Shown: positions 9,160 to 33,931 of the stretch, in pieces
Layout of the letters: each line of letters begins with the position of its first letter
Numbering within the stretch: the first letter of the stretch is position 1
NCBI GenBank assembly: GCA_007123515.1
Contig: SKKY01000159.1
Span: forward strand, 1-34,697
Direction of reading: 5' to 3'
DNA from: Clostridia bacterium
GTDB taxonomy: Bacteria > Bacillota > Peptococcia > Peptococcales > SKKY01
Length of the DNA stretch: 34,697 nucleotides
Notes under the pieces: generated by a model
What the model saw: the letters and a program-made list of their open reading frames with translations, nothing else
Told to the model about the DNA's origin: nothing
The model's database searches: none
Program-made: the position numbers and the translations under genes

Positions 9160-10149
9160 ATGACAACAACATTCAAAACCAGGCAAATAACAGAAGGTGC
9201 AATCATGGCTGTCATTACAGCAGTTTTCGCACTGATTGGAACGTTTGTTCCGTTACTAAACACCTTTACTTTTATGGTTATTGCCACACCTATCATCTTT
9301 GTAATTGTAAGAAATAATTTTTCAACCGGCATATTGTCTTCTTTGGTTGCCGCTTTTCTGGTGGGGATCTTTGCCGGACCAATCATTGCTTTGTTTTTTT
9401 ATCTGCAGTTTATGCTTTTGGCACTGGTATATGGCCATCTGATAAAAAAAGAAAGCAGCGTTGCAAAAATACTGTCTGCCGGAACCGTGGTATCGGTAGT
9501 GGGGACGATCATCGTTTTTGCCTTAATTGCTCTTACAGGGCAGTTAAATTTTGCACAACAACAGGAAGTTTTTTATGAAACCATTGACAGAACGATTGAA
9601 CAATATGAAAGAACAGGAATGCTCAGTGACTTAGAAGAACAGGGATTCACTCAAGAAGAAATCAGAGAAATGCTTGATGGGGTGATCCGTTTTATAATAA
9701 ATATAATTCCGGTGCTTATTGTTATTGCAAGTGCGTTAACGGCTATTCTTAACTTTATTTTTGCCAGTATGTTCTTAAGGAAATTTCAATATAAAGTTCC
9801 AAAGTTCCCAAAGTTTTCAGAGTGGAAACTGCCTTGGAACTCGATCTGGGGCTTTTTGGGAGCCTGGATTATTCTGCTTTTAGCCGATGTGCTTAATAAT
9901 AGTATGCTAATGGTTATCAGTCAAAACATTCTGATAGCCTATGGAGCCGCTTTTTTTATTACCGGTATTTCTACGGTTGCCCATATCTTTAAAAATGCAG
10001 AGCTTTCACCACTGTTAAGAATTGCTTTTGTCATTATTGTAGTCTTTATGTTTCAGAGTATAGTTGTAATTACTGCTATTATAGGCTTGTTAGATTTGTT
10101 ATTTGATGTACGAAAAAGAATGATGAAAAGAAAGGAAGAGAAACTATGA
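9160..10149 (+). CDS. YybS/DUF2232 family membrane protein
   Basis: ITEGA, FSEWKLP and [12 protein letters not shown] motifs; ATG 9160 after AGGAGAG; promoter-like TTGTCT-18-TATAAT at 9094-9123. Confidence 0.9.
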
Positions 10150-10595
10150 AGGTAATTTTATTAGAAGATGTGAATAAGATTGGGAAAAAAGGTGAAATTA
10201 AAGAAGTAAAAGACGGATACGCTCATAATTTTCTCTTTCCCAAAAACCTGGCAGCTCCTGCTACAAAGCAGAATCTGGCTAGTGTAGAAAAACAAAAAGA
10301 AGCAAAAAAACAAGAAGAGTTAAAACGCAAAGAAGAAGCGGAAGCGATTGGCAAAAAATTAACAGATAAAGAGTTTGGGTTTAAGGTGAAAGCCGGAGAA
10401 AGAGGAAGGCTATTCGGATCGTTAACCACAAAAGAAATCGCTGCAGAAATTGAAAGACAATATGACATCAAAATGGATAAAAGAAAATTGTCGATAGATG
10501 AGCCGATTAAGGCACTGGGAACCTATAACATAACAGCGAAACTTCATCCTGAAGTAAGCTTTGATTTTAAAATAATAGTTTCTGAACTGGAGTAG
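10146..10595 (+). CDS. rplI: 50S ribosomal protein L9
   Basis: [23 protein letters not shown] and GRLFGS motifs. Confidence 0.98.
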
Positions 10596-10606
10596 GATGA
10601 AATTTT

Positions 10607-11935
10607 ATGGATCAGGTAAGTTTTGAAAAACGCCAGCCGGCAAACATAGAAGCTGAAGAGGCTATTATTGCAGCTATGATTCTTGATAAACAGGTGATTA
10701 ATCAAGTTGTGCAAAGCCTTAAGGCTGAAGATTTTTACAGAGATCAAAATGGAATATTGTTCGAAACCATTGCCCACTTAAATGATAAAGGCGAAGTGAT
10801 TGAACTTTTAACCATTGCAGAAAATCTAAAAAAACAAAATCTTTTGGAAAAAGCCGGCGGATTACTGGAAATTACCCGAGTCGCCAATGCTGTCTCTACC
10901 ACGCAGGGGGTAGAGCGTTATGCGGAGATTGTTAAAGAAAAGTCGACGCTCAGGCAACTAATCAGAATTAATACACAGCTTCTTAATCGCTGCTATGAAG
11001 AATCAGAGGATGTAGAAAGTATTCTCGATGATGCGGAAAGACAGGTTCTTGAGATTTCCAAAGAACGAGAGTCCTCCGGTCTTGTACAGATTAAGAACGT
11101 GGTCAATGATGTCATCACGAATTTAGAAGAATTATATAACCGAAAAACAGACATTACCGGTATTGCATCCGGGTTTACTGACCTTGATAAAATGACCTCA
11201 GGTTTTCAGCGCTCTGATTTGATCATCGTTGCAGCCAGACCTGGTATGGGGAAAACATCTTTTTGTCTGAACATGGCCCAGAACATAACGACGAAAAGTG
11301 ATTTTTCAGCAGCTATCTTTAGTCTGGAGATGTCCAAAGAACAGCTGACGCAAAGAATTATTTCGTCAGCTGCTAAAATCGACCAGTCAATTCTTAGAAG
11401 CGGAAAAATTCAGGCTGATGACTGGAGCCGTCTGATTGATGTGATCAATCCATTATCGGAAGCAAAGATTTTTATTGATGATACGCCGGCAATTTCAGTG
11501 CGTGAGATAAGAGCAAAAGCCAGAAGGCTTCAGGCAGAAAAGGGTCTTGATATCCTCTTTGTTGATTACATACAACTAATGTCCGGAGGGATAAAGTCAG
11601 AGTCAAGACAACAGGAGATCTCATATATTTCAAGGTCACTAAAAGCCCTTGCCAGAGAGCTAAACATACCGATTATTGCCCTGTCTCAATTATCCAGAGC
11701 TACTGAACAAACTTCGGATAAGCGACCTAGCCTCAGTCACTTGAGAGAATCCGGTGCGCTTGAGCAGGATGCGGATATCGTTATGTTTATTTACAGGGAA
11801 GAATATTATGACCCTGATAGTGAGAAAAAGGCTATTGCAGAAATTATTATTGCCAAACACAGAAATGGGTCGATAGGCAGTGTAGAACTGGCCTTTTTTG
11901 GAGAGTTTACTAAGTTTAGCAATTTATCTAAGTAA
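10607..11935 (+). CDS. dnaB: Replicative DNA helicase
   Basis: AARPGMGKT Walker A, FSLEM, DYIQL, LRESGALEQDAD; no intein. Confidence 0.98.
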   Translation: MDQVSFEKRQPANIEAEEAIIAAMILDKQVINQVVQSLKAEDFYRDQNGILFETIAHLNDKGEVIELLTIAENLKKQNLLEKAGGLLEITRVANAVSTTQGVERYAEIVKEKSTLRQLIRINTQLLNRCYEESEDVESILDDAERQVLEISKERESSGLVQIKNVVNDVITNLEELYNRKTDITGIASGFTDLDKMTSGFQRSDLIIVAARPGMGKTSFCLNMAQNITTKSDFSAAIFSLEMSKEQLTQRIISSAAKIDQSILRSGKIQADDWSRLIDVINPLSEAKIFIDDTPAISVREIRAKARRLQAEKGLDILFVDYIQLMSGGIKSESRQQEISYISRSLKALARELNIPIIALSQLSRATEQTSDKRPSLSHLRESGALEQDADIVMFIYREEYYDPDSEKKAIAEIIIAKHRNGSIGSVELAFFGEFTKFSNLSK

Positions 11936-11958: not shown

Positions 11959-13365
11959 ATGATTAAGCATAATGCTGATATATTGATTATTGGTGCAGGC
12001 CCGTCAGGAATTTTTACGGCAATTGAGCTGGAGCGCCAAAGACCTGGGTTGCAGATTATCGTTATTGATAAAGGTGTTGAGATCGATAAAAGAAAATGTC
12101 CGGAAAGGACTAAAGGATATTGCGTTAAATGTCCGGTCTGCAGCATTACATCGGGCTGGAGTGGCGCCGGAGCGTTTAGTGACGGAAAGCTGAGTTTGTC
12201 AACGGATGTTGGCGGAAGGATTACCGATTATTTAGGACAGGATATCAGTCAGAAATTAATAGATTATGCGGATACCATATACATGGAATTCGGTGCTAAT
12301 GATATGGTATATGGTCTTAACAGTTCTAAGGTGGAAGACATTGCTTATGAGGCATCTAAACATGATTTGCAGCTAATCTCCTGTCCGGTAAGACATCTTG
12401 GAACTGAGAAAGCCTATACTGTTCTTAAAGCGATGCACGACTACCTGGTGGCAAAAGAAAATATTTCTTTCTGGTCATTAACCAAAGCGGTTGATTTAGT
12501 TGTTGAAGACGGATTAGTGATTGGCGCTAAGGTTAGCAGAGGGCTGAAAGAGTATCTTATTGAAGCTAAAAAAGTTGTTGTCGCTCCGGGACGCGGTGGA
12601 GCCGAATGGCTTAATCAGCAGACAGCAAAGCTAAACATACAGACAGAAAATAATGAGGTTGATGTAGGTGTCCGGGTTGAGGTGCCTAATTCTATCATGG
12701 ATCATTTGACAAAAGACTTATACGAAGCTAAGTTGGTCTATTATTCAGATACGTATGATAACCGGGTCAGAACGTTTTGTATGAATCCTGGTGGCGTGGT
12801 ATCCGGTGAAGGCTATGAAGGAATCTCGGTGGTTAATGGTCACAGTTATTCAGACCCTTCCCTGCGTACCAAAAATACAAATTTTGCGCTGCTGGTTTCA
12901 ACAAAATTTACCAAGCCATTTAACGAACCGATTGAATACGGAAAATATGTTGCCCGGCTTGCAAATATGCTGACGGGTGGTGGCATTATGGTCCAAAGGT
13001 TAGGTGATTTGGTTCGTGGCAGAAGAACCGATTATGCCAGGCTCGAAAAATCAACGACCATTCCAACATTAAAAAGTGCTGTTCCGGGAGATTTAAGCTA
13101 TGTGCTTCCGGCAAGATACTTAACATCCATTGTCGAGTCGCTAAAGGCTTTAGATAAAATAGCGCCTGGCTTATACTCAAGAAATACATTGCTCTATGGT
13201 GTAGAAGTAAAATTTTATTCGTCAAAAGTCACACTAGGCGATAATTTTGAAACAGAGATACAAAACCTATATACTATAGGTGATGGTGCCGGTATTACGA
13301 GGGGACTTATGCAAGCTTCAGTAAATGGGATTGCCGTAGCCAGAGACATAATAAAAAAATTATAA
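11959..13365 (+). CDS. NAD(P)/FAD-dependent oxidoreductase (COG2509-like)
   Basis: GAGPSG, GAGAFSDGKL, VRTFCMNPGG, VNGHS, GDGAGITRGLMQAS. Confidence 0.85.
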   Translation: MIKHNADILIIGAGPSGIFTAIELERQRPGLQIIVIDKGVEIDKRKCPERTKGYCVKCPVCSITSGWSGAGAFSDGKLSLSTDVGGRITDYLGQDISQKLIDYADTIYMEFGANDMVYGLNSSKVEDIAYEASKHDLQLISCPVRHLGTEKAYTVLKAMHDYLVAKENISFWSLTKAVDLVVEDGLVIGAKVSRGLKEYLIEAKKVVVAPGRGGAEWLNQQTAKLNIQTENNEVDVGVRVEVPNSIMDHLTKDLYEAKLVYYSDTYDNRVRTFCMNPGGVVSGEGYEGISVVNGHSYSDPSLRTKNTNFALLVSTKFTKPFNEPIEYGKYVARLANMLTGGGIMVQRLGDLVRGRRTDYARLEKSTTIPTLKSAVPGDLSYVLPARYLTSIVESLKALDKIAPGLYSRNTLLYGVEVKFYSSKVTLGDNFETEIQNLYTIGDGAGITRGLMQASVNGIAVARDIIKKL

Positions 13366-13385
13366 AAAATAAATAATAATAATGA

Positions 13386-14678
<1,293 letters not shown>

Positions 14679-17130: not shown

Positions 17131-17206
17131 GAGCCATTAGCTCAGTTGGCAGAGCACCTGACTTTTAATCAGGGTGTCCCGCGTTCGAGTCGCGGATGGC
17201 TCACCA
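17131..17206 (+). tRNA. tRNA-Lys(UUU)
   Basis: Cloverleaf, anticodon loop CTTTTAA, encoded CCA. Confidence 0.97.
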
Positions 17207-17214
17207 TTAAATAT

Positions 17215-17291
17215 GGCGCGTTGGAGAAGCGGCTTAACTCACCAGCCTTTCACGCTGGCATTCACGGGTTCGAATCCCGTACGCGTCACCA
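17215..17291 (+). tRNA. tRNA-Glu(UUC)
   Basis: CCAGC-CTTTCAC-GCTGG anticodon arm, TTCGAAT T-loop, encoded CCA. Confidence 0.96.
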
Positions 17292-17300
17292 TTTTATTTT

Positions 17301-17376
<76 letters not shown>

Positions 17377-27155: not shown

Positions 27156-27947
27156 ATGAAATTTTGTTCAATTGCAAGCGGATCAAGCGGAAATTGTTAC
27201 TATCTTGAAATAGAAGAGCAGAAATATTTGGTAGATGCCGGTATTTCTTTTAAAAGAATTAGAGAAGGCCTGGCGGGTATTAACGTAGACATTGCGGATA
27301 TCGCCGGGCTCTTTGTTACGCATGAACATACAGACCATGTCAGTGCCCTGCCGATGATCTTAAAAAAAACACAGATCCCGATTTTTTCTTCAACGGGAAC
27401 GTTAAGGGCCCTGCAGGGAAAATTTGAAGGACTTAGTACAACCAGACTTCATGATCTGTCAGTTGTTAATCCATTAGTAAGTGGTGATACGATGGTGACG
27501 TCCTTTAATGTCTACCACGATGCAGCCAATCCGATTGGTTTCGTTTTTGAATCAAGGCAAGCGAATAAAAAGGTAGGCATCGTCACAGATACCGGAAAGA
27601 TAGACCCAGAGATAACCGAAAAAATTCATGGGGTGAATCTTTTAGTTGTAGAAGCTAATTATGATGAACATACATTAAAAAATGGAGATTATCCGGCATT
27701 TTTAAAAAGAAGGATATTATCTTCTGATGGACATTTGTCAAATCTGGCAGCCGCTAAAATCCTTCATGATATCTGTCATGAAAGATTATCACATGTTTTT
27801 TTAGGGCACCTTAGTAAAGAAAACAATCTGCCTTTTATAGCGAAAGATGCGGTCTGTCAGTTCTTAGAAGATTTCAGTAAAGAGATTACCTTTGAGCTCG
27901 ACTGTTTATCCAGAAATATGCCAGGAGAACTGATAGTCGTAAAGTGA
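27156..27947 (+). CDS. walJ: MBL-fold metallo-hydrolase, YycJ/WalJ family
   Basis: SIASGSSGN, THEHTDH, HDAA, TDTG, EANYD, GHLSN, HLSKENN. Confidence 0.9.
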   Translation: MKFCSIASGSSGNCYYLEIEEQKYLVDAGISFKRIREGLAGINVDIADIAGLFVTHEHTDHVSALPMILKKTQIPIFSSTGTLRALQGKFEGLSTTRLHDLSVVNPLVSGDTMVTSFNVYHDAANPIGFVFESRQANKKVGIVTDTGKIDPEITEKIHGVNLLVVEANYDEHTLKNGDYPAFLKRRILSSDGHLSNLAAAKILHDICHERLSHVFLGHLSKENNLPFIAKDAVCQFLEDFSKEITFELDCLSRNMPGELIVVK

Positions 27948-28000
27948 CATACCCCCACCACTTATAGAAGTGGGGGCTTCTTGTTTCAATGACTACCGCC
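27944..28000 (-). mobile_element. Isolated IS200/IS605-type right-end remnant ending in TCAC
   Basis: Minus strand reads GGCGGTAGTCATTGAAACAAGAAGCCCCCACTTCTATAAGTGGTGGGGGTATGTCAC: subterminal hairpin plus TCAC, recalled as typical of tnpB-element ends. Confidence 0.7.
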
Positions 28001-28057
28001 TCATTAGCTGCTGAAATAAAAAAAGTTGGAAAATGTATTTAAAAAACAAAAAAAGCA

Positions 28058-28685: not shown

Positions 28686-28744
28686 AAAACCATAAGAGAC
28701 GTTTCTAACCGGTACACTGGTGGGAACGTCTCTTATGGTTTTTA
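28686..28744 (+). terminator. Long hairpin terminator with a degenerate REP-like core
   Basis: AAAACCATAAGAGACGTT...AACGTCTCTTATGGTTTT. Confidence 0.7.
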
Positions 28745-28790
28745 TTTATAGCGATATTTGGACGAATGCGGTTATAAAAGGCTTTAAGGA

Positions 28791-28805
28791 TTGACAATCC
28801 CACAG
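28791..28805 (-). mobile_element. Distal half of the interrupted IS200/IS605-type right end (ends TCAA)
   Basis: Minus strand CTGTGGGATTGTCAA; pairs with CAAGAATCCCATTG at 31946-31933. Confidence 0.7.
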
Positions 28806-28825
28806 CTTTAGTTATCTTGACTAGA

Positions 28826-28862
28826 AAAGAGGGAGCCTTCTATTTCAAGGGGCTCCCTCTTT
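28826..28862. terminator. Subterminal hairpin/terminator at the transposon left end
   Basis: AAAGAGGGAGCCTT...GGGGCTCCCTCTTT (with G-U pairs). Confidence 0.7.
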
Positions 28863-28957
28863 ATATACATATACACAAAGTATAAACATGTTTAATTTTT
28901 GATGATCTGTGACGCATAAATCAGATACTACGCACATAAGTGTTTTTAAACATTATC

Positions 28958-30235
28958 TCAAGTTTGAACTGCCGATTTAATTTTCAACTCCTCTGTTTCA
29001 ATACAAAATAACCATTCAATTTTCTCCAATTCGGATTCTTTACTATCTTCCCAGTTAGCGTTAGTAAAAGCAGTTATAAATTTAAGGGTACTCCCATCAT
29101 CTGACCAGGACATATCTTTGTATTTCAGCATAGGTTCTCGAGAGTGAAGTATATTAAAACCTTCCTGTTCTAAAACGGTATTCAGCTTTTCCACATCAAG
29201 GGTAACCACATTTTCCTTTTGTTTTAGGTTATCTATATGCAACCAACTTCTTGGGCCATCTTCAGTAGAGATATAGGCAATATTTTCTTCGTCAGGAGAC
29301 CATTTTTTCTCCATTGCTAAGTCTCCCCACCCAATATTGGTAAAATTAACTTCATTATCGTTTAAGTCAATTATACCAAAAGCACCTATACGGAAAGGAC
29401 AAGCACCATAATTGTCTAAATCAAAAGCAATTTTATCTTCTGTAGGGGATATTTTCATAGCTCCAATGCCGTTAAAATAGTGAGGGGTTGGTGCTTCAGG
29501 ATTATCACCTAAGTATCCTTCTACTCCCTGGTACTCTAAAATAGTAGAACAAATAATTTTGCTCCAGTCTTCTTCCAAAACACTATACAGGTCCTCAATA
29601 CTAAATAATCTCTTGCCGTTATAGTACCACTTGATATTGGCCTTCTCCAGTCGCTCTGATAATTCAGGGGCTTTTTCATCAAGCTGACGAATGATGATCG
29701 TCTCTTCTAATTCGACCAATTCTTCTTCCACAACTAAGCGGTTAAAAGCCTTTATTGGAGGGCCCCGTCTTTCCCTCTCCAACTCCTTTCCCAGGTCCAA
29801 GATTCCTCCATCAATTTTGTCTTCTTCTCCTTTAACCAGTATCTGTTCCAGCTCTTCTGGTATATCACGGTCAAGCTCATGCTCGGCTGTTTGCTCCTCA
29901 AAAACAGCCATTAGATTTTTATCTTCAATTATTTCCAGCTTATGTCTTTTATCTGTGCTTAACTGATCCCCTTCTTTTTCCCATGCAACAAACTCGTAGC
30001 CTTCTTTGGGAGTGGCTTCTACTGTTATCTCTTCCCCTTCTTCATAAATGCCTTCTCCTATTATTTCGCCAACATCCTCAGGATCAGCTTGTACCTCTAC
30101 TTTGTATTCATTTACTTCATCTTGTTTATCCTGCTCATCCTCTGCTTTTTCCTCTGAAGCACATCCTGTAATAAAAATTGTTAAAGCTGTTAAGCTTATT
30201 ACTATCACTAAATAAGCTGATTTTCTTACTGGCAC
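28958..30235 (-). CDS. Acidic lipoprotein with an InlB-B/bacterial-repeat-like domain and WSPD-type repeats (transposon cargo)
   Basis: Lipobox ITGC; G.G.YEEGEEITVEATPKEGYEFVAW repeat; ISPTEDKIAF, WSPDEENIAY and WSDDGSTL motifs; GTG start after GAGAGGTG. Confidence 0.8.
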   Translation of the reverse strand: MPVRKSAYLVIVISLTALTIFITGCASEEKAEDEQDKQDEVNEYKVEVQADPEDVGEIIGEGIYEEGEEITVEATPKEGYEFVAWEKEGDQLSTDKRHKLEIIEDKNLMAVFEEQTAEHELDRDIPEELEQILVKGEEDKIDGGILDLGKELERERRGPPIKAFNRLVVEEELVELEETIIIRQLDEKAPELSERLEKANIKWYYNGKRLFSIEDLYSVLEEDWSKIICSTILEYQGVEGYLGDNPEAPTPHYFNGIGAMKISPTEDKIAFDLDNYGACPFRIGAFGIIDLNDNEVNFTNIGWGDLAMEKKWSPDEENIAYISTEDGPRSWLHIDNLKQKENVVTLDVEKLNTVLEQEGFNILHSREPMLKYKDMSWSDDGSTLKFITAFTNANWEDSKESELEKIEWLFCIETEELKIKSAVQT

Positions 30236-30356
30236 TTTACCACCTCTCTCTAATAAATTTTAAAATGATATGTCCTGTTGAAGAGGAACATAATATATCA
30301 AATGCGTATTAAATGGGTTCTTTTTAAAAGCATTCTTCCCTGCTTTTAAAATCAAA

Positions 30357-30740
30357 TTAAGTTAGTGAATCGTAAAATTTGCCACGCAACTTTTGCAGCT
30401 CTTCTTTAAGACGTTTATTCTCATCTTCTAGTTCTTTTATCTTTTTATTTTTTGCAGCAATTACAGCATCCTTGCTGGCATCAGTCATTTCTCTTTTAAC
30501 CTGCCTAGCAGAAGGAAGCCCTTCCTGCTGTTTCCGCAAATTTTCGATACGCTGACGAATTTCCTGGTTGGTGTAGAGATAAGCTTTGCTTACACTAGCT
30601 TCTTCGGCTACACTGTTAAAATTGATTCTATCTTTGTTCTTGACCAGGCGCTGGATGGCTTCATCAACTTTTTTGGCAGTTTGGGCTTTTCTGTGTTCGG
30701 CATGTCTTTTTAGACCTTCTGTGTTACGCTTGTGGGACAT
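30357..30740 (-). CDS. TnpC-like transposition accessory protein (DUF6262-like)
   Basis: INFNSVAEEASVSKAYLY HTH plus C-terminal coiled coil; ATG 30740 after GGAGAGGAG. Confidence 0.82.
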   Translation of the reverse strand: MSHKRNTEGLKRHAEHRKAQTAKKVDEAIQRLVKNKDRINFNSVAEEASVSKAYLYTNQEIRQRIENLRKQQEGLPSARQVKREMTDASKDAVIAAKNKKIKELEDENKRLKEELQKLRGKFYDSLT

Positions 30741-30810
30741 TTTGACGCTCCTCTCCAACGTACTCCCTTCTTTTTTTACCAGCTATGTGGTGGGCTTTGC
30801 CTTCTTTCAA
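30724..30810 (-). pseudogene. Probable C-terminal remnant of the second recombinase (Tn554 TnpB-like)
   Basis: Alternative frame LKEGKAHHIAGKKRREYVGEERQNVPQA* overlaps the tnpC start, as tnpB would; resemblance to such C-termini is from memory. Confidence 0.6.
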
Positions 30811-31768
30811 GCAAAAGATCGAAGTGGCTGTGCCTGAACATATGAGAGGTTACATGTAGATCCGTTTTTGCCCTGAGCCTGCGGAAAAGGCTCATAACAT
30901 CTTCGTATTCCAGTGGCTGATATTTCTTGTCTCCCGATATTTTGATTAGCACATAGTTAGTGTCTACTTCATCGGTGTGATACTCCGCTATGTAATCAAA
31001 GAAAAGGTTGATTAGATCGGCTGAAACATCTACAGTGCGAGGACTGCATACGGTCTTGATTTCAGCAAGGTTGGGCAGTTCCCCCCGATCCTGCAGATGT
31101 ATTTTTTGAGCATCGGGTTCAACATCTTCTAACCATAAGGACAGCGCCTCCGAAATCCTAAAGCCCGTTTCCCAGAGTAAATTTATTAAGAACTTGTCCC
31201 TTAGGTTCTTGCAGGCGTTTAATAATTTTTCTACCTGTTCCTTGCTTAAGGTAGCAACATTTCTTTTGGGTTCTTGCAGTTTTAAGATTTTTGCTGTAAT
31301 AGGCTTGTCCTTATTGATGTGGTGAAGAAACCCCTTAAAACTTCTCCTGCTTCCTGAAACGGTTTTTTTAAGCTTCTCCGACAGTTGGATACTGTAGTCT
31401 TCATGCCTCATTAAGTAATCGTAAAAGTTAAGGACAGTAGATATTATCGTGTTTATCGTAGCTGGACTCCGTTTAGATTGAACGGGTTTTACAGGGGTAA
31501 TTTTGGAGCTGCTGTAAGGGTTTTTTAGCCACCTCACAAATGAAGCCATATCATCTATGCCAACTTCCCGATAGTCCAGCCCTTCTTGATTTAAAAACTC
31601 AAAAAACAGCTTCAAATGCTGGCAGTAACAGCGGAGGCTGTTTCTCGCTGCCTCACTGTTGTCTTTAAACTTAATATATTTCATCACTGGAATAACTGGC
31701 TTTCCTTCTTCATCTACCAGCATGTATCTAGTTCTGTCATCTGCTGTAGCAACAGTCACCACTTTCAA
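30776..31768 (-). pseudogene. Tn554 TnpA-like tyrosine recombinase, truncated before the catalytic Tyr
   Basis: ETGFRISEAL and HMFRH are present; the protein ends 17 aa after HMFRH with no GH or Y motif. Confidence 0.85.
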
Positions 31769-31926
31769 TTCCCTTCACCACCAAGACAGGAAGATTAAGT
31801 ATATTCATACTATACTACACATACTATATATTTATAATACTTATATGTATATTATTAAGTAAAAATATAGAGGGATAAATCTTCTTGTAATACGTAGAAG
31901 ACTATCCCTCTAACTAGTACAGATAA

Positions 31927-32068
31927 CTAAAGCAATGGGATTCTTGAGTGATTAAACGCCATTCTGTTTCCAGTAGACAAGTATAACCTCAAGCTAAGGG
32001 CATGCGCATGCCATTGTCCTTCCTAAGACAGTACATGTAGTATCTTAGGCTGATAGACTTTTATCATC
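31927..32068 (-). ncRNA. IS605/TnpB omegaRNA-like scaffold and proximal right-end half (orphan remnant)
   Basis: Minus strand: DDKSLSA* tail; stems CCTAAGA/TCTTAGG, GGCATG/CATGCC, CTTGAG/CTCAAG and CTG-GAAA-CAG; then CAAGAATCCCATTGCTTTAG. Confidence 0.65.
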
Positions 32069-32191
32069 TTTTCCCATAGATGGAATGGTCTTATTTTCTA
32101 AGATAAAAATCAAGTTCAGGCTTGATATTTCCTGCAATGAAACCATTTTTACAGATCATTTTGGCGTAGCCTTTTTTTCCAACCGAGTGTC

Positions 32192-32548
32192 TCAGCTAAA
32201 GTCTTGAGCGAACTCTTCAATAGATTGCAACAGTAGTGTGGAAAAATAGGTTAATACAGGTCCACCGCCCATACTAACGGCGACTAGTCCGGCTTCCTGG
32301 ATTTCCTCTTTACTTGCCCCAGCCCGAAAGGCTTCATAGACATGGATCACGACACAATATTTGCATTTGATATGCAAGCCGATCGCAACACTGATTAGCT
32401 CTTTTTCCTTTACACTTAAAGCACCGGCGCTGTTTAAAGCCTTGCTTTGCTCAATAATGGCTCTAGCCGTATCGCGATTATCTTTCATAAATCCTTTAAA
32501 GCCGTCTTTATACTCTTTTAAAATTTCTCTTGGATTTTCCTGCATCAT
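32192..32548 (-). CDS. Carboxymuconolactone decarboxylase/AhpD-like protein
   Basis: GALSVKEKELISVAI, CKYC, GASKEEI, MGGGP; start 32548 after GGAGGG. Confidence 0.9.
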   Translation of the reverse strand: MMQENPREILKEYKDGFKGFMKDNRDTARAIIEQSKALNSAGALSVKEKELISVAIGLHIKCKYCVVIHVYEAFRAGASKEEIQEAGLVAVSMGGGPVLTYFSTLLLQSIEEFAQDFS

Positions 32549-32703
32549 TATAAACCCTCCGTTAGTCATAGTATTCGATACACTCTGTTATATTACATAC
32601 CCGAATTATGATTTCGTTAAAAATTAAACACGTTTCCAAAAGTAGTAACATTTTGTCTGATGATTCTGGTATGATAGTATCAGAATTAATTTTATCCGAT
32701 TAT

Positions 32704-32782: not shown

Positions 32783-33931
32783 ATGGAGAACTACAGAATT
32801 ATTGTTGCAACCGCTTTCGGCATGGAAGCGACTTGCAAAAGAGAAATGCTGGCACTTGGCTATGAAAAACTGCAGGTGGAAAACGGACGTATTGAGATAG
32901 ACGGTAGTTTTGCCGATATTGCGAAGCTAAGCATCTGGCTTAGAACAGCAGAAAGAATCAAAATTAAAATAGCAGAATTTAGAGCAGAAACCTTCACAGA
33001 ATTATTTGACGGAACAAGAACCGTCAATTGGTCGGACTTTGTCCCAAAAGGGGGAGCATTTCCGGTTGATGCAAAATCTGTAAAGTCAAAGCTTTTTAGT
33101 TTATCGGATTGTCAAAAAATAGTGAAAAAAGCGATGGCGGAAAGTCTAAAAGAAGTAAGGAATGAAGATTGGCTGGATGAATCCGGATCATTATATCGAT
33201 TTGAAGTCAGTATGCTTAATGACATAGCCACGATTACGCTTGATACTTCAGGTCCCGGGCTTCACAAGCGCGGGTACCGTAAATTAGTAGGTTCAGCACC
33301 AATAAAAGAAACCATGGCAGCAGCGATGATTGATTTAAGTTACTGGAATAAAGACAGGCTGTTGTTAGATCCGATGTGCGGATCTGGCACTTTTCCGATA
33401 GAAGCGGCTTTAATAGCCCGAAACATTGCACCGGGGCTTAACAGAACATTTACTGCAGAAACCTGGGGAAATTTTCCGGTCGATGTCTGGAAGAAAGAAC
33501 GAACTGAAGCAAAAAAACAGATCGATTTTGACACAGAATTACAACTATATGGTTACGATTATGACCCGGAAACGATAGAAATTGCAAAAATTAATGCGGA
33601 TGATGCCGGTGTATTGGAAGATATCGTATTCGAACAGAAGGATTTCCTCGCACTTGGGCCAAAGCTCCCCTGGGATTACGGAGTGATGATTACCAATCCC
33701 CCTTACGGAGAGAGGATCGATAAAAGAGATGAAGCCATCCAGATTTACAGAAAATTTGGAGAGTTAATGAGCGATAACCCCACATGGTCATATTACCTTC
33801 TTACATCCAATGAAGATTTTGAAGGAGCCGCAGGCAAAAAAAGTGATCGAAAAAGAAAAATGTTCAACGGAAATATCAGGGTTGATTACTATCAATATTA
33901 TGGTCCAAGACCACCGAGAAAAGAACAATAA
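32783..33931 (+). CDS. THUMP-domain class I SAM-dependent RNA methyltransferase (YpsC/RlmL-like)
   Basis: WLRTAER, LHKRGYR, APIKETMAA, DPMCGSGT, TNPPYGER. Confidence 0.93.
   Translation: MENYRIIVATAFGMEATCKREMLALGYEKLQVENGRIEIDGSFADIAKLSIWLRTAERIKIKIAEFRAETFTELFDGTRTVNWSDFVPKGGAFPVDAKSVKSKLFSLSDCQKIVKKAMAESLKEVRNEDWLDESGSLYRFEVSMLNDIATITLDTSGPGLHKRGYRKLVGSAPIKETMAAAMIDLSYWNKDRLLLDPMCGSGTFPIEAALIARNIAPGLNRTFTAETWGNFPVDVWKKERTEAKKQIDFDTELQLYGYDYDPETIEIAKINADDAGVLEDIVFEQKDFLALGPKLPWDYGVMITNPPYGERIDKRDEAIQIYRKFGELMSDNPTWSYYLLTSNEDFEGAAGKKSDRKRKMFNGNIRVDYYQYYGPRPPRKEQ

Follow-up and report, generated by a model that had tools for sequence, protein, structure and literature searches.

Within the window, by which we mean the whole stretch of 34,697 nucleotides analysed here, a Tn554-family element occupies positions 28812-31926 on the minus strand (3115 bp, arms included). 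It is bounded by 13-nt inverted arms and lies between the two parts of a right-end relic of the IS200/IS605 type. The features of the locus are given below, where C20 denotes a second copy of this right end in the same genome, L009 and L010 are relatives of the element in two other genomes, and L091 and L092 are empty CTTTAG-loop copies of the target in the genomes of L009 and L010.

28791-28805, minus strand: outer piece of the IS200/IS605-type right-end relic, a 3' stem half followed by TCAA; it aligns with C20 across the joint and has the layout of IS608
28806-28811, minus strand: attR hexamer (CTAAAG on the element strand), a 6-bp footprint from the previous site, assigned from the single hexamer between the stem halves of the empty copy and from the rule set out in passages of PMC10214605
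28812-28824, minus strand: cargo-side (tnpC-distal) 13-nt terminal arm, complementary to the other arm at 11/13 positions
28958-30235, minus strand: cargo gene encoding a 425-aa predicted lipoprotein with an InlB B-repeat domain (Pfam PF18998, E 7e-11)
30357-30740, minus strand: apparently intact tnpC homologue (DUF6262; PF19776, E 4.8e-20, profile positions 2-110 of 110)
30776-31768, minus strand: truncated tnpA (short tyrosine recombinase), 330 aa against ~376 aa in homologues, with the C-terminal catalytic-tyrosine block missing
30807-30864, minus strand: deletion joint at which ~2.1 kb that intact relatives have is lost, comprising the tnpA 3' end and almost the whole of tnpB, the gene for the large recombinase (BLAST blocks against L009 and its ORF map)
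31868-31910, minus strand: subterminal hairpin of the tnpA-side end, GGGATAG...TATCCC type, seen when upstream regions were compared and kept in the closest relatives; a function can be assigned to it by inference only
31914-31926, minus strand: tnpA-side 13-nt terminal arm, recognized from the inverted repeat and from relatives
31927-31932, minus strand: attL hexamer (CTTTAG on the element strand), the loop of the target hairpin; the same hexamer is present in the empty copies C20, L091 and L092
31927-32069, minus strand: body of the right-end relic, omegaRNA-scaffold-like, 143 nt, 94% identical to C20:13727-13869, with no tnpB adjoining

The initial annotation had called the element Tn554-like, and its proteins bear this out. 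A Tn558-type element, the tnpA-tnpB-DUF6262-fexA element on the staphylococcal plasmid pSN134, served as reference; its TnpA is 38% identical to that of the window (E 5e-76) and its TnpC 37% (E 3e-25), the latter alignment beginning at the ATG at 30740. TnpA contains Pfam Phage_integrase and SAM-like domains and has 521 homologues at E<=1e-20, mostly of 361-391 aa among the matches listed. By inspection, the N-terminal ITGC of the cargo protein is presumably a lipobox.

The initial annotation also spoke of a tnpABC lineage, but the locus has no full tnpABC set. The window TnpA departs from its homologues after about residue 316 and stops at residue 330, before the catalytic-tyrosine region, and the gene for the large TnpB tyrosine recombinase (about 630-655 aa) is absent from the window, where only ~18 nt separate tnpA from tnpC. 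A Tn554-type TnpB recombinase of 655 aa is present in both L009 and L010, and that of L009 is ~29-30% identical to staphylococcal and enterococcal ones over 93-94% of its length. Aligned with L009, the window copy matches 10097-10905 and then 13006-13455, skipping L009 10906-13005. Since the large recombinase is absent here and present in relatives, the window copy derives by deletion from a Tn554-family member and is left without two of the three Tn554 functions (TnpA, TnpB and TnpC). It is defective, and from its gene content it reads as an immobile fossil that carries tnpC and the lipoprotein gene.

Element ends and the rebuilt target site

The flanks proposed by the initial annotation are present to the letter. 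On the left side, TTGACAATCCCACAG (28791-28805) is followed by CTTTAG (28806-28811) and TTATCTTGACTAG (28812-28824); on the right side, CTAGTACAGATAA (31914-31926) is followed by CTAAAG (31927-31932) and CAATGGGATTCTTG (31933-31946). Two occurrences of the motif AATCCCANNGCTTTAG were counted in the window, where 0.43 would be expected, and because two or more were found in 8 of 100 shuffles, this count is weak evidence when taken alone. The decisive evidence for insertion is the empty site. When 28806-31926 is excised, so that 28700-28805 is joined to 31927-32200, the resulting sequence aligns without gaps to C20:13711-13869 with 150 of 159 positions identical; the alignment runs across the joint and the homology begins at the TCAA end. 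The prediction that excision rebuilds a hairpin ending in TCAA is thereby confirmed. C20 is a paralogue at a locus of its own, and the loop assigned to the window copy before insertion is a putative one. Congeneric genomes are only ~68% identical in the neighbouring gene, which is too far for a comparison of the orthologous empty locus.

In a repeat search, the longest inverted repeat of the region consists of both flank/arm junctions (29 nt, 86% complementary, 25/29, 3089 nt apart). As this repeat is continuous and, seen alone, looks like transposon ends, all 29 nt might be taken for long terminal repeats of an element that targeted no hairpin. This is extremely unlikely: the outer 16 nt and 143 further nt occur in C20 without the element, which makes the outer part of the repeat target DNA, and the identical elements L009, L010 and L102 (the last on a metagenome contig) have different outer sequences and hexamers. 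Inverted repeats that bracket a tyrosine-recombinase gene could belong to an invertible switch, in which the recombinase flips the DNA between them. Such a switch is exceedingly improbable here, given a recombinase without its catalytic-tyrosine region, homologues that are transposon genes in tnpA-tnpB-tnpC order at many unrelated sites, and the existence of an empty site.

The nature of the target follows from its copies. C20 runs on into a tnpB pseudogene (a fragment matching PF07282, E 7e-14, frame broken), and its right end consists of a hairpin and then GTGTCAA, an arrangement that the two halves in the window share. The right end of IS608 is drawn as a subterminal palindrome plus TCAA (Fig. 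1 legend, PMC5934647), and the window and C20 ends likewise have a subterminal imperfect palindrome a few nt before a TCAA-type cleavage site, as IS200/IS605 right ends do. With the gapless empty site and the position of C20 3' of a tnpB remnant, the earlier placement of the insertion exactly in the loop of an IS200/IS605 right-end hairpin stands. The same hairpin would form the final stem-loop of an omegaRNA scaffold. Folded as DNA, the C20 hairpin is predicted at -4.9 kcal/mol (z -1.9; 8/200 shuffles fold equally well), and it also forms inside a predicted 240-nt RNA fold. Its predicted stability is modest, and its conservation across TnpB elements is the stronger argument.

The right end lies 3' of an intact TnpB gene at L009 and L010 and 3' of the pseudogene fragment at C20. 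The rebuilt site, which the initial annotation had proposed to seek downstream of intact tnpB genes, was found uninterrupted and 3' of tnpB in this genome, but the tnpB there is a pseudogene. Neither a Y1 (HUH) transposase nor a left end adjoins the window copy or C20, where the upstream part of the tnpB fragment is cut off; one Y1_Tnp match lies elsewhere in the genome, on C119. Only two copies of the right end were found in this genome (assembly 86% complete) and none in five congeneric genomes, and the suggestion of many harmless targets is not borne out here. Nor was a working omegaRNA split from its guide at this locus, as had been imagined, because the window target is a right-end relic on its own, 159 nt long, and no tnpB adjoins it.

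Several other candidates were discarded. The ORFs at 32192-32569 and 32783-33931, considered as IS605 tnpA and tnpB, are a CMD-family protein and an RlmL-like methyltransferase according to Pfam. A one-mismatch match to the motif on C137 lies inside coding sequence and is a chance match. A genome-wide count of CTTTAG hairpins was too lenient when G-U pairs and offsets were allowed, as 50 of 1144 sites passed.

Taken together, we consider it probable (about 0.85) that a Tn554-family tyrosine-recombinase transposon inserted in the 6-nt loop of the subterminal hairpin at an IS200/IS605-type right end, and that the tnpA 3' end and the large recombinase gene were lost from it afterwards.

Relatives, hexamers and palindromic flanks

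From the 521 TnpA homologues (E<=1e-20), 160 loci were retrieved. L009 and L010 are two copies of an intact 3719-bp relative (99.87% identical over 3747 aligned bp) that occupy the CTTTAG-loop hairpin in opposite orientations, with flanks swapped and reversed. Both sites lie ~270 nt 3' of ORFs that encode TnpB (NF040570, 103.1 bits, where the cut-off is 100). L102 has as its left flank a third and diverged copy of the L009/L010-type right end, with a local alignment score of 58 that none of 200 shuffles reached; local alignment with shuffles was used for this comparison, as blastn-short missed even L102. L101 and L088 represent the same place as L010 and are not independent sites. The expectation that independent relatives would be found in the same loop is therefore supported by L009, L010 and L102. 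The AGTnnAGATAA-type arm at the cargo side is kept in relatives, and the clade is hosted by anaerobic Bacillota whose genomes were assembled from metagenomes. Scanning 401 genomes of the phylum for the junction pattern gave no new case: 17 places matched, and only the four known ones adjoin a tnpA homologue.

In SE elements, according to passages of PMC10214605, attL keeps the 6 bp of attB, and attR receives the 6 bp of the donor. In the copies studied here, empty sites hold one hexamer and occupied junctions hold two different ones, with no target duplication. The attL hexamer equals the target loop in all three cases in which that loop is independently known. The attR hexamers are CTAAAG in the window, CTTTAG in L009 and CATTAG in L010, and CATTAG is also the attL hexamer of L102. 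This pattern fits the SE rule, under which the 6 bp of the target would lie at the tnpA side and the 6 bp of the previous site at the other end.

That each of the three carried hexamers is of the IS-loop type implies previous sites of that kind too and favours a reading in which the IS605-type right-end hairpin is the dedicated site of the lineage, recognized by the sequence of its stem and CTTTAG loop. The near-identical L009-type element is known only from such sites (L009, L010 with its duplicates L101 and L088, and L102), and GMT (gamma-mobile-trio) islands are reported, in the part of 10.1101/2023.03.28.534373 that concerns their sites, to have a cognate repeat-containing site for each system. 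We nevertheless regard a dedicated site as rather unlikely. The closest relatives by TnpA, L172 (97%) and L106 (90%), both partial, are at other sites; 12 of 13 other left flanks in the closest clade have no similarity to this right-end family; the stems of the window target and the L009-type target differ in sequence; and only four independent sites are known. Genes flanking the closest-clade elements are ordinary, with TnpB in 0 of 10 tested. The IS end accounts for 4 of the 16 readable sites in this clade, the remainder being other short palindromes, mostly after ordinary genes. Of the proposal that this lineage uses the IS605 end as its att site, what survives is a recurrent target, but not the sole one.

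A palindromic context is common to most insertions. At least 7 of 10 nested Watson-Crick flank pairs were found in 10 of 15 complete events, including 8/8 of the closest clade, whereas this level was reached by 3.6% of 3351 random sites and 9.5% of 210 mismatched flank pairs. The remaining five events have 4-6 of 10 pairs and represent a second target family with an imperfect palindrome; no Rfam family matches this second palindromic target or the right-end region. These frequencies also bear on the view that there is no real target preference and that the hairpin was hit by chance, a view to which the modest stability of the hairpin and its few copies in this genome lend some colour. With palindromic flanks so much rarer at random sites, with four independent insertions at the exact same loop position in diverged copies and with carried hexamers of the same type, chance is very unlikely.

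Possible integration route and comparison with known systems

Insertion into the loop, the reading that we prefer, could proceed as follows. By analogy with Tn554 and the SEs, joining of the element ends would create a palindromic core site, in which 6 bp separate the two 13-nt arms, and the target would be another palindrome, likewise with a spacer of 6 bp. Strand exchange would occur at the spacer edges and would not need homology between spacers. The 6 bp of the target would come to lie beside the tnpA-side arm and the 6 bp copied from the donor site beside the other arm, and no target duplication would be produced. Judged by its sites, the clade prefers short GC-rich palindromes with a 6-7 nt centre, among which the CTTTAG-loop hairpins of TnpB elements form a class that recurs.

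The Tn554 family (Tn554 and Tn558; Staphylococcus, Enterococcus) shares with the clade a short tnpA, a long tnpB, tnpC (DUF6262) and downstream cargo, in the order seen in the relatives, as well as imperfect inverted ends, the lack of a target duplication and a 6-bp donor-site footprint. The Tn554 site att554 lies in radC. Hosts of the clade are, unlike those of classical Tn554, anaerobic Bacillota, and the window copy has neither tnpB nor the end of tnpA. In the portion of PMC3414803 that treats them, classical members are given a single integration site, and by that description they are set apart from the clade, which is found in the loops of varied palindromes including TnpB-IS ends.

The SEs, as far as passages of PMC10214605 describe them, have 13-19-bp imperfect inverted ends, and the window hexamers behave as theirs do; they differ in a fourth core gene (tfp) and in targets that are a few selected locations, not IS ends. 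GMT islands carry a tyrosine-recombinase trio and insert into specific sites, with an inverted repeat present in 238 of the 366 naive sites that were predicted; this repeat lies on either side of an island once it has inserted, and the circular form lacks it. The account of sites in 10.1101/2023.03.28.534373 from which these points are taken mentions no IS-end target. The window proteins score far below the NCBIfam cut-offs for GmtY (44.5 bits, cut-off 340) and VPA1267_fam (21.1, cut-off 90), and the window element has neither core set (GmtY, GmtZ and GmtX; IntA, Tfp, IntB and Srap). The element works like the GMT/SE systems, yet it is not a member of them. ISPpu9 and ISPpu10 of the IS110 family target repetitive extragenic palindromes, according to the abstracts of PMC12288879 and 10.64898/2026.03.19.712850, and similarly use a multicopy palindrome as a safe landing site; they differ in an IS110-type recombinase with a bridge RNA and in a target that is a host repeat and not the end of another transposon. 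The initial annotation knew of no description of the targeting seen here. Both palindrome-containing sites and the 6-bp carry-over have in fact been published before, for GMT/SE elements and for Tn554.

That a Tn554 sublineage uses the TnpB (IS200/IS605) right-end hairpin loop as its cognate multicopy landing site, homing into another selfish element and disabling it, is a tentative idea that we find somewhat doubtful. If it were true, insertion would split the hairpin bound by the IS transposase and part the omegaRNA scaffold from its guide, and each copy would keep a 6-bp record of its origin site, from which the history of transposition could be read by sequence alone. The locus and its relatives document the targeted insertion of one mobile element into a working structure of a second, a hairpin used both in IS200/IS605 transposition and in the guide RNA of TnpB. 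Were the preference specific, elements of this kind would curb how far TnpB insertion sequences spread, and their arms and recombinases could be tried as tools for insertion at definable short palindromes. Within this genome, taken by itself, the locus is a double fossil with no likely present function. Beyond it, small palindromes with a 6-nt centre offer a readable target rule for the little-studied Tn554 family outside the staphylococci, and the natural copies show that the 6-bp carry-over of Tn554 and the SEs holds in distant relatives.

An interrupted IS right end

The longest inverted repeat found in the region by a repeat search comprises the two ends of the element (29 nt, 25/29 complementary, 28796-28824 and 31914-31942). 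In the window sequence its flanks read exactly as they were written in the initial annotation. The outer repeat sequence occurs once more in the assembly of the window's genome (193 contigs, 86% complete), uninterrupted on contig C20. A site rebuilt by joining 28700-28805 to 31927-32200 by coordinates aligns to C20:13711-13869 without gaps across the joint (150/159 identical), and the homology starts at the minus-strand TCAA. The initial annotation had proposed searching for this empty site in its own genome; the match lies 3' of a tnpB remnant (Cas12f1-like TNB domain, E 7e-14), of which the frame is broken and the upstream part is cut off where contig C62 overlaps. The outer repeat might instead have been an invariant end of the element, but it stands element-free in C20 and is, on this alignment, target DNA.

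The last 37 nt of the C20 copy are predicted to fold into a hairpin with its stem around a CTTTAG centre, followed by GTGTCAA, which recovers the hairpin drawn earlier from the window. This layout matches the right end of IS608, where a subterminal imperfect palindrome precedes the TCAA cleavage site (Fig. 1 legend, PMC5934647). Together, the alignment and the layout indicate that the window carries a solo right-end relic, interrupted by 3121 nt (the 3115-bp element plus 6 nt). The relic and the genes between the repeats are as follows.

28791-28805 and 31927-32069, minus strand: solo right-end relic, 159 nt, from the alignment with C20
30776-31768, minus strand: tyrosine recombinase (TnpA), 330 aa
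30357-30740/30758, minus strand: DUF6262 protein (TnpC)
28958-30235, minus strand: InlB B-repeat domain protein, 425 aa, with a lipoprotein-like N-terminus

Outside the repeat, the adjacent genes are ordinary ones, with no IS gene among them, and encode a GNAT acetyltransferase, a CMD-family protein and an RlmL-like methyltransferase (Pfam). The truncated tnpB fragment spanning C20 and C62 has another hairpin with a CTAAAG centre (CCCACGG, CTAAAG, CCGGG) ~150 nt upstream of it, on C62 (~245-290); this hairpin is similar to the left flank of L172, a relative, and may represent a terminus of another decayed IS copy.

The window recombinase has 521 homologues at E ≤ 1e-20, those listed being mostly 361-391 aa, and several sources label them transposases. 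On a staphylococcal plasmid, tnpA (361 aa) is followed by genes for a 637-aa recombinase and a DUF6262 protein and then by fexA, an arrangement that we take to be Tn558. The window TnpA and TnpC are 38% (E 5e-76) and 37% (E 3e-25) identical to the corresponding proteins of this element, in agreement with the earlier designation as Tn554-like. When aligned with seven homologues, the window TnpA tracks them to about residue 316, then diverges and ends at residue 330, ahead of the conserved C-terminal block with the catalytic tyrosine. Against the intact relative at locus L009, the window DNA aligns in two blocks (L009 10097-10905 and 13006-13455); the ~2.1 kb of L009 absent from the window correspond to the 3' part of tnpA and almost the entire 655-aa recombinase gene, and no other copy of the recombinase was found in the window's assembly at E ≤ 1e-30. 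Judged from its sequence, the window copy is a fossil, a broken member of the Tn554 family, and it is dead on both sides, as a defective transposon within a relic IS end.

Recurrent insertions and the hexamer footprint

Relatives were collected from 80 genome and 80 metagenome loci. Closest-clade elements measure ~3.7 kb (longer with cargo) and have TTAnnTnnAC-type arms ~150 nt upstream of tnpA and AGTnnAGATAA-type arms at the far end. Just inside the tnpA-side arm, a subterminal hairpin (GGGATAG, ~20 nt, TATCCC; window 31868-31910) is kept across the closest clade (L007-L013, L084, L095-L102) and may be a recombinase-binding or regulatory site.

The initial annotation predicted independent copies in IS605-end hairpin loops, and three such sites besides the window were found. 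L009 and L010, from two genomes of one genus in the phylum of the window's genome, carry a 3719-bp element, with 99.87% identity across 3747 aligned bp. Each copy occupies a hairpin whose six-base centre is identical to that of the window's target, and lies ~270 nt downstream of a TnpB ORF, which scores 103.1 bits with NCBIfam guided_TnpB (cut-off 100) and weakly matches solved TnpB structures. Since the flanks of L009 are the reverse complement of those of L010, the two insertions are independent and of opposite orientation. Both genomes also hold uninterrupted copies of this right end (L091, L092), with a CTTTAG centre and ending in GGTTCAA or GGTTCAG. On metagenome contig L102, an L009-type element lies beside a third, diverged right-end copy (local alignment score 58, reached by 0/200 shuffles). 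L101 and L088 were counted together with L010, whose site they repeat.

Insertion of SE elements leaves the central 6 bp of attB at attL, beside the intA-side end, and places at attR a copy of six bases of the donor site's left flank; this footprint is also stated for Tn554-related elements (PMC10214605). The natural copies studied here conform to this rule.

Table. Junction hexamers at the tnpA side (attL) and the far side (attR), with orientation relative to the IS
Locus; orientation; attL; attR
Window; same; CTTTAG; CTAAAG
L009; same; CTTTAG; CTTTAG
L010; opposite; CTAAAG; CATTAG

The attL hexamer equals the target centre in all three cases where the centre is known from empty paralogues. 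Each carried hexamer (3/3) matches the IS-loop hexamer exactly, as its reverse complement or with one base changed, which points to earlier residence of the window, L009 and L010 elements in loops of the same kind. The CATTAG of L010 is the attL hexamer of L102. The carried hexamer of the window happens to be the reverse complement of that of its target, so the 13-nt arms extend through the hexamer into the palindromic stem, giving the 29-nt repeat originally described.

Target range

Fifteen events with both arms placed (the window and 14 loci) were scored by the number of nested Watson-Crick pairs that the 10 nt flanking the hexamers on one side form with the 10 nt on the other. Loci running off the contig at one end, L019, L105 and L107 as uncertain, and a Clostridium clade with different ends were left out. 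At least 7/10 pairs were counted in 10 of the 15 events, among them 8/8 of the closest clade, and at least 8/10 in seven, against 3.6% and 0.66% of 3351 random sites in the same loci, and 9.5% and 4.8% of 210 mismatched flank pairs.

The majority of these palindromic sites are not IS ends. By local alignment, L102 alone among 13 further closest-clade left flanks resembles the right-end family. No TnpB occurs among the ten flanking ORFs tested, which comprise one rve-type IS transposase and otherwise ordinary genes; several stop 20-60 nt ahead of the insertion, and these closest-clade sites just past gene ends look like terminator hairpins. The window's nearest relatives by TnpA occupy other sites (L172, 97% over 160 aa; L106, 90% over 240 aa). 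A loop-plus-arm junction scan of 401 genomes of the phylum matched 17 places (three with the reversed control pattern) and gave no new case, a tnpA homologue adjoining only four already-known places. The proposed use of IS605-end palindromes as att site thus holds in that such loops are hit repeatedly, but IS ends account for only 4/16 closest-clade sites with a readable left flank, a count that omits six more loci with arms unrecognised by the search pattern, and the rest are other palindromes. That some sublineage is truly dedicated to IS ends is possible, though less likely than not.

The original observation and the core of its interpretation are confirmed. Literature searches on the Tn554 family with hairpins, palindromes, stem-loops, terminators or TnpB as targets, and on DUF6262, outside supplementary site lists, turned up no account of insertion into IS200/IS605 ends. 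Tn554 hosts are given as Staphylococcus and Enterococcus (PMC10214605); actinobacterial relatives are described elsewhere, where the Tn554 integration site is called unique (PMC3414803). For GMT islands, an inverted repeat is reported in 238/366 predicted naive insertion sites, flanking the island and absent from the circular form (10.1101/2023.03.28.534373). The general principle is already published for relatives, and no new mechanism is involved here. New are that the target is a functional hairpin belonging to another mobile element, with repeated insertions in both orientations, and that the palindrome rule and 6-bp footprint extend to Tn554-type elements of anaerobic Bacillota.

Other targets and features of the window

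The Clostridium clade (L033-L076, e.g. L034 9842/13585 and L038 9829/13546; TnpA 53-57% identical) belongs to the same transposon family and has AATATAGTGTAG at one side and TACACGAGATAT at the other. Its far end adjoins a ribosome-binding-site-like AGGAG and then the ATG of the next gene, which suggests a different type of target for this clade; many contigs of 3.7 kb contain nothing but its element. Insertions also recur in a second target, an imperfect palindrome (GGGGTAGCGTCAGGAAA-type arm, 6 nt, partner arm) without an Rfam match, occupied in both orientations in Bacillus, Clostridia and metagenome loci (L014, L017, L018, L021, L022, L024, L032, L083, L108, L116, L119, L121); an uninterrupted copy adjoins the insertion in L116.

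In the window, the GNAT gene is followed by a perfect 18-bp inverted repeat (28686-28742; centre of 21 nt), its probable terminator, which lies ~50 nt from the IS relic and is unused by the element. Between a metallo-beta-lactamase-fold gene and the GNAT gene lies a ~68-nt interspersed repeat (27942-28010) that contains a GC-rich hairpin (CCCCCAC...GUGGGGG) and recurs elsewhere in the genome, with at least nine more copies on other contigs at 93-100% identity. Three consecutive tRNA genes occupy 17131-17373 (Rfam tRNA, 60-70 bits).
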